Source: Escherichia coli
GTDB lineage: Bacteria > Pseudomonadota > Gammaproteobacteria > Enterobacterales > Enterobacteriaceae
Assembly (NCBI RefSeq): GCF_045037415.1
Contig: NZ_CP173438.1
Direction: 5' to 3' (one strand)
DNA length: 64,000 nucleotides
The position numbers are program-made. This document shows positions 60,301 to 63,300 of this stretch, piece by piece (positions within the stretch are counted from its first letter, which is position 1; every line of letters begins with the position of its first letter).

Positions 60301-63300
60301 ACTACAACAACACCCAGGAGATCTGGGATGAGTTGCGTCATCTGTGCCCGGATTTCTACGGTGCGACTTACGAGAAAATGGGCGAACTGGGCTTCATTCA
60401 GTGGCCTTGCCGCGATACTTCAGATGCCGATCAGGGGACTTCTTATCTGTTTAAAGAGAAGTTTGATACCCCGAACGGTCTGGCGCAGTTCTTCACCTGC
60501 GACTGGGTAGCGCCAATCGACAAACTCACCGACGAATACCCGATGGTACTGTCAACGGTGCGTGAAGTTGGTCACTACTCTTGCCGTTCGATGACCGGTA
60601 ACTGTGCGGCACTGGCGGCGCTGGCTGATGAACCTGGCTACGCACAAATCAATACCGAAGACGCCAAACGTCTGGGTATTGAAGATGAGGCATTGGTTTG
60701 GGTGCACTCGCGTAAAGGCAAAATTATCACCCGTGCGCAGGTCAGCGATCGTCCGAACAAAGGGGCGATTTACATGACCTACCAGTGGTGGATTGGTGCC
60801 TGTAACGAGCTGGTGACCGAAAACTTAAGCCCGATTACGAAAACGCCGGAATACAAATACTGCGCCGTGCGCGTCGAGCCGATCGCCGATCAGCGCGCCG
60901 CCGAGCAGTACGTGATTGACGAGTACAACAAGTTGAAAACTCGCCTGCGCGAAGCGGCACTGGCGTAATACCGCTTAAACTCACGTTAAAAGCGGTGATA
61001 TTACCCAACGCCTTTGTATCAATCCGGAAACGACTCTCTGTTTCCGGATTTTTTTATACATACCTGCGCAGTCAAACCAGCCTATCCTGGTTATTAGCGA
61101 CGTCTTCTCGGTTGTTCTTCTATTCCAGTCACGATTGCAAATGAGAATTATCTTTACTCAATTCTCATCGCGGCCTAACGTAATAATACTTTACATTTGA
61201 TGAACCAAATTTCGGTAAGGTGAGAAATCATCGACCGTTTAACTCGTTCTATTAACGGGATATTTTGGCGCGATTAATGCAACAAAACCCCGTCTGATAG
61301 AATATTAATAACCTCAAAGTAATTTCAGGGATTGGGAAGCATATGATTAAAAAACTATTACCTTTACTGGTTTTAAGCACAATTTCCGCCACAACCGTTG
61401 CCGCTACACCGCCTAATACGTTGGTTGTAGCCCAGGGGCTGGATGATATTGTGAGCCTGGACCCGGCAGAAGCTAATGAACTCTCAAGTATTCAGACTGT
61501 ACCAAGTCTGTATCAACGCGTAGTGCAACCGGACCGTAATGATCCGACGAAAATTACTCCGATTCTGGCGGAAAGTTGGCAGGCTGACCCCGCAGCCAAA
61601 ACGCTAACCATAAAACTGAAAAGCGATGCGAAATTTGCCTCTGGTAATCCGGTACGCCCGGAAGATGTGATTTACTCTTATGTCCGGGCTGTCACACTGA
61701 ATAAATCCGGTGCGTTTATTCTCAATGTGCTGGGATGGCAGCCGGAAAATATCGCCAGCCAGTTGAAGAAAATCGATGACCATACCGTCCAGGTGCAATG
61801 GAGTGCCGACGTCAGCCCGGCTCTGGCACTGAATATTCTCTCCACACCAATCGCCTCAATTGTTGACGAGAAGCTGGTTGCGCCAAACGCCAAAAATAAC
61901 GACTTTGGTAATGAATGGCTGAAGATGCATTCCGCTGGCAGCGGCGCGTTTAAAATGCGTACTTACCAACCGCATCAGGCCATCGTGATGGAAGCCAACG
62001 CCAGCTCACCAACCGGCGCCCCGAAACTGAAAAGCGTCATCATCAAAAATGTTCCCGATCCGGCAACACGTCGCCTGCTGATCCAACAAGGTGATGCTGA
62101 TATGGCTCGTGATCTGGGAGCCGATCAAATCGATGCATTACAGGGTAAACCTGGCGTAAAAGTGATGAGCATTGCCTCCGCCGAACAGAACTACCTGGCC
62201 TTCAATACCGGTAACAAGGATAACCCGCTGATGAGTAATCCTGCGTTCTGGGAGGCCGCTCGCTGGTTGGTCGATTACGACGGCATCACCAAAAATCTCT
62301 TAAAAGGACAATATTTTACCCATCAGAGTTTCCTGCCCGTGGGCTTTCCTGGAGCACTGGAAGAAACACCGTTTACCTTTAATCCAGCCAAAGCAAAAGA
62401 GATCCTCGCTAAAGCCGGAATCAAAGACCCGCACTTCACGCTTGATGTCGAAAATAAACCGCCATTTATTACCATCGCGCAGTCAATTCAGGCCAGCTTT
62501 GCTCAGGGCGGTGTAAAAGTTGATTTGCTGCCAGCCGCAGGGAGTCAGGTCTACTCTCGCGTTCGCGCCCACCAGCATCAGGGGGCCATTCGTATGTGGT
62601 TGCCTGATTATTTTGACGCACATTCCAACGCCAGCTCTTTCGCCTATAACGATGGCAAATCCAGCACCGTTGCCGGGTTAAACGGCTGGAAAATCCCGGA
62701 ACTGAACAAAGAAACGCTGGCGGCCATCGCTGAACCTGATAGCACTAAACGTCTTGATTTGTATAAGAAAATGCAACAAGAACTACAACGTAGTTCCCCG
62801 TATGTCTTTATTGATCAAGGCAAAACGCAAATTGTCATGCGTGATAATGTGCAGGGGTATCAACAAGGGTTGAATGCCGATATGGTCTGGTTTGATCAGG
62901 TAACCAAATAACCCTGTATGCAACTCGCGTCCAGCCATGTTACCGGGCGCGGTACCAGGGCTGGCCTGTATTGCAGGCCAGCCGCTGATTTATCACTGTA
63001 TGGAAAGATCATGTCTGTCGTTTTTTCCACTCGCGCAAGATGGCGAGGCAAACGCCCTCTGCTCGCGCTGTTGCAAGGGCTGTTTACCGTTGCTCTGACG
63101 CTACTCGGCCTGCTGCTGATTACCTTTGCGCTTTCGGCTCTCTCACCGGTCGATCGCGTACTACAAATCGTTGGCGATCACGCCAGCCAGTCCACCTATG
63201 ATCAGGTACGCCACCAGTTAGGATTGGATCAGCCGTTAGCCGTCCAGTTCTGGCATTACCTGATGAATCTGGCACACGGCGATCTGGGCATCGCCAGCTC

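Follow-up and report, generated by a model that had tools for sequence, protein, structure and literature searches.

Promoters activated by LysR-type regulators have a textbook layout in which a recognition dyad near -65 is combined with an activation site near -35. Repressors acting by steric occlusion bind operators with half-sites about 10-11 bp apart, and some of these operators overlap the -35 region. The NikR operator of nikABCDE, GTATGA-N16-TCATAC, has a length of 28 bp. Further inverted repeats of intergenic DNA, namely terminators and REP or ERIC elements, are able to form stem-loops.

A perfect inverted repeat upstream of an ABC transporter operon of Escherichia coli resembles each of these systems in part. 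As in repressor operators overlapping the -35 region, its dyad centre would lie at about -33.5 of a weak predicted promoter, the promoter is that of a transport operon, and conservation is seen at the level of a genus. In contrast to steric-occlusion operators, the half-site centres are 19 bp apart, no further site was found in the sequences searched, and the repeat does not recur in the orthologous promoters of other genera. With the NikR operator it shares the 28-bp length, the wide half-site distance and the location upstream of a family-5 gene distantly related to nikA, but each half-site agrees at only 3 of 6 positions and the binding protein is not a NikA equivalog, so that the repeat is not a member of this class. 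The LysR-type layout is fitted by the orthologous promoters of other genera, with dyads predicted to lie near -63 and -42 and a weak -35 region, and the E. coli repeat is located at the place of the activation site. However, E. coli and Escherichia albertii lack the dyad at -63, and the repeat is not of the T-N11-A form and is centred too far downstream. Like terminators and REP or ERIC elements it is intergenic and capable of forming a stem-loop, whereas it is A/T-rich, has no T-run, is present in single copy and lies 90 bp past the fdhF terminator.

The inverted repeat and the ABC transporter locus

The analysed stretch of DNA, a 64-kb window, is of the E. coli B2/ST131 type; at this locus, SK1144 and ST131-type strains are 100% identical to it. 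A five-gene ABC cassette follows mdtNOP and fdhF and precedes yjcO; coordinates are listed in Table 1. The cassette has a size of 5.6 kb, is of the peptide/nickel type and encodes a binding protein, two permeases and two ATPases. It was found in 1043 of 5426 complete E. coli genomes (about a fifth), including Nissle 1917, and in E. albertii at the same site between fdhF and yjcO. In K-12, which lacks it, the fdhF stop codon is followed by eight shared bases, a different terminator and then yjcO. Since K-12 joins fdhF to yjcO with a terminator of its own, the cassette together with its control region represents a 5.6-kb indel. The best NCBIfam matches of the binding protein were NikA, GsiB and DppA with about 107-110 bits, all far under the cut-offs (110 versus 393 bits in the case of NikA), and the closest solved structures were of the DppA type (E about 1e-27). 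Literature searches on the fdhF/yjcO/ABC transporter locus and on start-site maps of Nissle 1917 and uropathogenic strains yielded nothing usable.

Table 1. Features of the intergenic region between fdhF and the ABC cassette, in window coordinates.
Feature	Coordinates	Strand	Remarks
fdhF intrinsic terminator	61021..61050	+	11-bp perfect stem (12 pairs with A-T in the scan count) followed by a T-run
66-bp invariant block, E. coli versus E. albertii	61134..61199	.	about -54 to +12 of the predicted promoter
Left arm ATGAGAATT	61141..61149	.	about -47 to -39 from the predicted start
Spacer (loop) of the repeat ATCTTTACTC	61150..61159	.	10 nt; holds ATCTTT and the predicted -35 hexamer
Predicted weak -35 hexamer TTTACT	61153..61158	+	17 bp from the -10 hexamer; wholly inside the spacer of the repeat
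Right arm AATTCTCAT	61160..61168	.	about -28 to -20, within the predicted -35/-10 spacer
Predicted -10 element C-TAACGT	61175..61181 (hexamer 61176-61181)	+	consensus in other genera CCTAACGTAGCG
Escherichia-only leader, about 113 bp	61186..61298	+	between the -10 box and the AGCATA..TTTCAGGGATTG region of the ribosome site, which is conserved
Family-5 (peptide/nickel type) periplasmic binding protein, first cassette gene	61343..62911	+	no equivalog reached

The earlier note had described a perfect 9-bp inverted repeat with a 10-bp spacer, about 175 bp before the start of the binding protein gene in AT-rich non-coding DNA. Sequence reading, a pattern search and a repeat finder all returned this repeat with 100% complementary arms, and the symmetry ends at 9 bp, A61140 and C61169 being unpaired. 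Its position was likewise confirmed: 175 bp separate the end of the right arm from the ATG of the binding protein gene, the ABC operon follows downstream, and the 374-bp intergenic spacer, which begins after the fdhF stop codon at 60968, has a G+C content of 39.6% compared to 50.8% for the window.

On its own, a single perfect repeat of this size is unremarkable and weak evidence, as chance alone would produce about five in 64 kb. In the window, 22 distinct inverted repeats are perfect over 9 bp or more and have spacers of no more than 20 bp, whereas dinucleotide shuffles contained 4.75 ± 2.3. When the 374-bp spacer was shuffled separately, at least one such repeat appeared in 4% of the shuffles (P about 0.04). 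The 28-bp pattern with up to three mismatches occurs once in the window compared to 0.01 expected occurrences. The chance figures of about five per window and 0.04 for the intergenic spacer agree with an explanation to which we give somewhat less than an even chance, namely that the symmetry is coincidental: 9 bp of a constrained promoter would happen to be complementary, and this complementarity would have no function of its own.

The same explanation fits the outcome of the searches for further copies of the motif, which the earlier note had proposed and which brought no second site. With up to three mismatches, none was present in the 64-kb window, nor did 1.03 Mb of sequence from related enterobacterial loci contain one. 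An exact search of a metagenome collection gave 51 matches, two of which are the locus itself (L103 and L116); the other 49 came from unrelated organisms, and many of them were longer hairpins. In 1043 genomes the repeat occurs at one place per genome, which excludes a repeated or mobile element.

Consensus sequences for Fur, NikR, CRP, FNR, Zur, ArgR, MetR, TyrR, PurR, Lrp, NagC and IscR were compared with the intergenic spacer, and none matched above the level of shuffled sequences. The CytR octamer occurs in perfect form at 61276-61283 (P = 0.02, uncorrected for 13 tests) but was rejected as a candidate, since a SNP breaks it in other strains. The repeat might be the site of a known metal or global regulator, either as a Fur box over the left arm or as a NikR-like operator, an assignment that would fit a transporter of the nickel/peptide type. 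Apart from the 28-bp length, this reading could draw on NikA being the best NCBIfam match of the binding protein and on agreement of the left arm with 12 of the 19 positions of the Fur box GATAATGATAATCATTATC. However, 12/19 is the level of shuffled sequences (mean 11.65, P = 0.53), and the NikA match is tied with those of GsiB and DppA. For NikR, the repeat matches 6 of 12 positions by eye, and the best site in the spacer, at 61292, reaches 9 of 12 (P = 0.20). By these comparisons a metal regulator would be a very improbable owner of the site, and we regard this reading as close to refuted as far as the sequence is concerned.

Constraint within Escherichia and the predicted promoter

The intergenic spacers of the window and of E. 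albertii differ at 53 of 374 positions (14%), but there is no difference at all in a block of 66 bp that includes the repeat. The probability of a difference-free run of at least 66 bp in this spacer is 7e-4. Of 1044 E. coli records, 1032 carry the identical 66-mer, whereas the 66-mers on either side are identical in 565 and 409; C61194T, the only variant that was looked at, does not affect the arms. At the level of sequence comparison, the block is thereby shown to be under purifying selection within Escherichia, and the segment around the repeat is likely to be regulatory. Since the block runs 31 bp past the repeat, the constraint does not single out the symmetry. The arms are free of substitutions between the two species, and thus there is no compensatory change to read.

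A leader peptide was considered, because an open reading frame of 19 codons (61141-61200) starts with an ATG in the left arm. It was rejected, as it lacks a Shine-Dalgarno sequence and its stop codon is lost in E. albertii. Read by eye, the frame shows no synonymous variation whatsoever, which argues for constraint at the DNA level.

The promoter was placed solely by the conservation of its -10 box across genera. No other promoter box has been retained between Escherichia and the other genera. Its weight-matrix score in E. coli is 14.1, compared to a median of 17.1 for the orthologues (P = 0.002), and aligned in register with them the E. coli sequence is CGATTGCAAATGAGAATTATCTTTACTCAATTCTCATCGCGGCC-TAACGT. 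CTAACGT can be read as a -10 element with T at -12, A at -11, T at -7 and C at -13. From this placement we infer a promoter TTTACT-17-TAACGT with a transcription start near 61188, in which the arms of the repeat would flank the -35 hexamer. The repeat is assigned to the -35 region because E. coli retains the CCTAACGT box that has a fixed spacing in about 50 orthologous promoters. The 66-bp block has the extent expected of an RNA polymerase footprint, which provides independent support for the promoter assignment.

None of the sigma-70 predictions in the intergenic spacer exceeded shuffled sequence; the position-weight score of TTTACT-17-TAACGT, 7.3, was the third best in the spacer, compared to a mean best score of 8.4 in shuffles, and a consensus promoter scan of the plus strand of the spacer found nothing. 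The best-scoring alternative, TTAATG-18-TGaTAGAAT at 61274-61303 with the proximal element TGaTAGAAT at 61295-61303, requires a SNP present in this strain, TAGCAT being read elsewhere, and its surroundings are poorly conserved.

The constraint bears on the coincidental-symmetry explanation in both directions. If the symmetry were accidental, the invariance would reflect contacts of RNA polymerase from the UP-element to the discriminator, perhaps with contributions of nucleoid proteins or of an asymmetric regulator, and it fits this idea that the block has the extent of a polymerase footprint and is off-centre to the dyad. On the other hand, the complete invariance of the -35/-10 spacer exceeds the usual demand of the polymerase, and we estimate the probability of a perfect 9+9 repeat arising by chance within a 66-bp block at roughly 0.005 (about 600 position-spacer pairs times 4^-9 to 1e-5).

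Between the -10 box and the ATG there are 167 nt in E. coli compared to about 50 nt in the other genera. The difference is due to a leader that is confined to Escherichia and moderately structured (fold z-score -2.25), and no Rfam family matched it. An origin from a repeat or mobile element was rejected, since the leader is present in single copy in E. coli genomes.

Promoters of the orthologous loci in other genera

Species-representative genomes were scanned with an alignment of 14 orthologues, which gave 80 loci, 78 of them with upstream sequence. The loci belong to Kluyvera, Klebsiella, Raoultella, Enterobacter, Lelliottia, Leclercia, Kosakonia, Trabulsiella, Buttiauxella, Cedecea, Serratia, Yersinia, Proteus and other genera, and protein identity is 72-87%, compared to 98% in E. 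albertii. No regulator gene adjoins the cassette in any of the about 78 loci. The neighbouring genes vary by genus: betIBA and a GNAT gene in Raoultella, argI and pyrB in Serratia and Yersinia, a proP-like gene in Buttiauxella and a flagellin gene in Pseudescherichia, functions which are in part presumed from the protein sequence and not from a database result.

Among the 78 loci with upstream sequence, the repeat is exact in E. albertii only. In all others the best matches have 4-7 mismatches in the 18 arm positions and are found at scattered positions. Conservation in orthologous loci, whose absence the earlier note had named, together with chance frequency, as evidence against its proposal, is not seen outside Escherichia, so that this comparison goes largely against the proposal.

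About 50 promoters of Enterobacteriaceae other than Escherichia share a layout in fixed register. It consists of gTTATgc-N7-gCATAAgc, AAAGc-aGAATTt-aGACTTT, exactly 20 variable nucleotides and CCTAACGTAGCG, followed after about 45 nt by TTTCAGGGATTGC and the ATG. In a dyad-symmetry profile of 52 unique promoters, the peaks were TTATGC-N7-GCATAA (6.5 of 14) and GCAAAG-N11-CTTTGC (6.0), whereas the position of the E. coli dyad centre scored 3.2 of 14, which is background. The TTATGC-N7-GCATAA dyad has the T-N11-A form of LysR-type sites, and the two dyads would be located near -63 and -42 of the predicted start, so we infer a putative LysR-type activator for these promoters. The window has six near-matches to TTATGC-N7-GCATAA, no more than chance level (3.96 expected). 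Per column, the information content in the other genera amounts to 1.67 bit in the CCTAACGT box, 0.96 under the repeat spacer, 0.73 under the left arm and 0.33 under the right arm, the lowest value of all.

E. coli lacks the upstream TTATGC-N7-GCATAA dyad: its weight-matrix score is 2.3, compared to a median of 17.3, and does not exceed that of shuffles. The loss of this ancestral dyad implies that regulation was rewired in Escherichia. In the GAATT/GACTTT segment, E. coli is 2 nt out of register with the other genera. According to the alignment, the GAATT core of the left arm is the counterpart of the semi-conserved (A)GAATT box, and ATCTTT in the spacer of the repeat is the local version of GACTTT; TTATCTTTACT is common to Kluyvera intermedia and Kluyvera genomosp. 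1. Trabulsiella odontotermitis has a near-identical AATTTTCAT at the place of the right arm. These correspondences indicate how the repeat could have arisen by coincidence. The left arm and the spacer would derive from the ancestral AGAATT and GACTTT boxes and the right arm from the A/T-rich GGAATTT of relatives. Two AATT boxes automatically form an inverted repeat of 4 bp, and since T. odontotermitis already has GAATTATGACTTTACGGAATTTTCAT, few changes would complete the palindrome. The absence of a dyad signal at this position across the 52 promoters is in accordance with such an origin.

A counter-indication comes from promoters in which repeats of 7 bp flank the same CTTT box, namely CTGAATT/AATTCAG in Trabulsiella guamensis and CGCAATT/AATTGCG in Cedecea davisae. 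Arms of at least 7 bp were present in 3 of the 52 promoters, compared to 0.84 expected when the flanks were re-paired at random (P = 0.03), which hints that symmetry is sometimes favoured. The mean arm length over the 52 promoters, which are not phylogenetically independent, was not raised (P = 0.15), and matches between the flanking arms are inflated because AATT is self-complementary. Recurrent symmetry around the CTTT box may thus be taken as a weak hint.

A putative operator over the predicted -35 region

We favour, with a probability of about 0.42, the reading of the repeat as a putative repressor operator that is specific to Escherichia and covers the predicted -35 region, with coincidental symmetry as a close rival. 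A symmetric dimer or tetramer spanning both arms would cover this region and could thereby block RNA polymerase, resulting in repression. The operator would have been gained in the Escherichia lineage after the loss of the upstream TTATGC-N7-GCATAA dyad. In its favour, the repeat is perfect and unique in the window, the ancestral upstream dyad has been lost, the invariance takes in the right arm, where RNA polymerase by itself constrains the sequence little, and the predicted promoter is weak, as expected of a regulated one. The distance of 19 bp between the half-sites argues against it, being unusual for a simple dimer and exceeding that of typical helix-turn-helix dimer sites. A repeat of this size is also within chance for a 64-kb scan, the constraint reaches past the arms, and no promoter prediction in the spacer exceeds shuffled sequence. 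The dyad is not conserved beyond Escherichia, no second site was found in the sequences searched, and none of the known consensus sequences compared matches it above chance. The transcription start, a protein binding to the repeat and the direction of regulation are predictions. The earlier note had seen in the geometry a fit to a dimeric regulator; the location in the predicted core promoter and the 66-bp invariance support a regulatory role of the segment, whereas the spacing, the lack of conservation outside the genus and the lack of a second copy in the sequences searched speak against an operator.

A broader scenario, in which Escherichia lost the dyad of a LysR-type activator, acquired the 113-bp leader by insertion and gained a widely spaced putative operator for an Escherichia regulator, bracketing the -35 hexamer, appears rather unlikely as a whole. 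If it were correct, the repeat would offer access to the regulator and to the inducing signal of an uptake system, hitherto uncharacterised, that is associated with ExPEC and B2 strains. The more interesting by-product of the analysis is the evidence for promoter turnover, i.e. the loss of the dyad and the insertion of the leader in Escherichia; the repeat itself is a single unverified palindrome that is otherwise ordinary and of modest consequence. The comparison provides a small and clean example of a control region that was replaced in one genus, while conservation of the coding part of the cassette amounts to 72-87% across Enterobacterales. Knowledge of promoter and operator would permit a direct search for the regulator and the inducing condition and hence for the substrate.

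The earlier note had also considered an RNA hairpin, an option that has become weak. A stem-loop could form in fdhF read-through or upstream RNA, or a cruciform in the DNA, and might influence stability, termination or promoter opening. As RNA, the repeat has a predicted folding energy of -9.3 kcal/mol (z = -2.35 compared to shuffles), and the different stems around the conserved CTTT loop (9 bp in E. coli, 7 bp each in T. guamensis and C. davisae) are reminiscent of covariation. However, it lies upstream of the predicted transcription start and 90 nt beyond the strong fdhF terminator, which separates it from fdhF transcription. Its A/U-rich stem, with 2 G-C pairs among 9, is followed by CGCGGCC and not by a U-tract; therefore the repeat is not a terminator, and the terminator scan did not report it as one. 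The best match of Rfam 15 over the repeat, a permuted tmRNA model with 18.6 bits compared to a gathering score of 47, is noise. A conserved hairpin was rejected: 49 of the 52 orthologous promoters have no stem of at least 6 bp, stems of at least 7 bp are limited to 3 promoters (P = 0.03), and the mean stem length is that of re-paired flanks (P = 0.15). A function of the repeat as a hairpin thus appears improbable.

With respect to inverted repeats at other positions of these promoters, those of Yersinia and Serratia carry repeats of the type GACTTTG-N11-CAAAGTC between the box and the -10 region.

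The ABC cassette as an indel between fdhF and yjcO

Compared with the K-12 locus L137, the five-gene ABC cassette forms a clean indel of 5.6 kb (window 60969-61050; positions 17465-17575 of the compared locus L001). Homology to K-12 ends 8 bases past the fdhF stop codon and restarts at the T-run ahead of yjcO, and each of the two forms, with and without the cassette, has its own terminator. Of 5426 E. coli genomes, 1043 carry the cassette, and E. albertii has it at the same site. The appearance of fdhF as two ORFs (see table) is due to an in-frame TGA selenocysteine codon, a known feature of this gene, which is annotated as selenocysteine-containing.

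Neither of the two matches labelled as plasmids in the E. coli collection is a plasmid-borne copy of the cassette. One of these records, L139 (NZ_CP161804.1), a linear record of 23.9 kb labelled as an unnamed plasmid, is a frameshift-ridden chromosome segment with the order mdtP-fdhF-ABC-yjcO-nrf. In the record NZ_CP024131.1 (strain 14EC007), labelled E. coli, the intergenic region shares 99.8% identity with its E. albertii counterpart and just 80-90% with the window sequence; the record may come from an E. albertii given the wrong label or from a recombinant.

Features of the fdhF-ABC region and of related promoters
Feature	Coordinates	Description
fdhF	58821-60968	two ORFs, 58821-59240 and 59289-60968
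19-codon ORF (MRIIFTQFSSRPNVIILYI)	61141-61200	begins at the ATG of the left palindrome arm; nearly coextensive with the invariant block
Escherichia-only leader	61186-61298	about 113 bp, separating the -10 box from the conserved ribosome-site region
Inverted repeats near the CTTT box		CTGAATT/AATTCAG, CGCAATT/AATTGCG, GACTTTG-N11-CAAAGTC; promoter regions
Loci with repeats near the CTTT box		L014 (T. guamensis), L053 (C. davisae), L069/L065 (Yersinia, Serratia)

Promoters of the orthologous operons in other genera

Among L003-L057, where the orthologous operon occurs in about 50 Enterobacteriaceae other than Escherichia, a promoter of fixed register is shared. It lies some 60-130 bp ahead of the ATG of the binding-protein gene (for example at 5850-5950 in L016). 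Its elements follow in the order TTATGC-N7-GCATAA, GCAAAG-N11-CTTTGC, a GACTTT box and, after exactly 20 nt, CCTAACGTAGCG. This layout is similar to that of LysR-type activated promoters, and the first dyad has the T-N11-A form; no gene for the promoter's regulator lies near these operons. In Escherichia, the first dyad has been lost. The same conserved CTTT box is flanked or followed by independent inverted repeats of differing sequence in the taxa listed in the table. Arms of at least 7 bp at this box were observed in three promoters, with 0.84 expected (P = 0.03).

Leader and small ORF in Escherichia

The 19-codon ORF overlying the invariant block is probably not coding, since it lacks a Shine-Dalgarno sequence, loses its stop codon in E. 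albertii and shows no synonymous variation.

The first 14 bases of the leader fall within the invariant block. The leader is single-copy, has a fold z-score of -2.25 and gave no Rfam match. In one E. coli isolate (L138, NZ_OZ040994.1 4557046-4557813), an IS1 element has inserted into the leader and duplicated a 9-bp target equivalent to window 61232-61240; it keeps the binding-protein gene apart from the palindrome and the promoter block. Within the lineage of the window strain, a SNP has changed TGATAGCAT to TGATAGAAT at 61295-61303. The result is an extended -10-like motif that lies 40 nt before the ATG and is absent from other strains and from E. albertii; it could give this lineage a constitutive proximal promoter. 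The leader region also contains AATAATACTTTAC, which is similar to the upstream AATTATCTTTAC.
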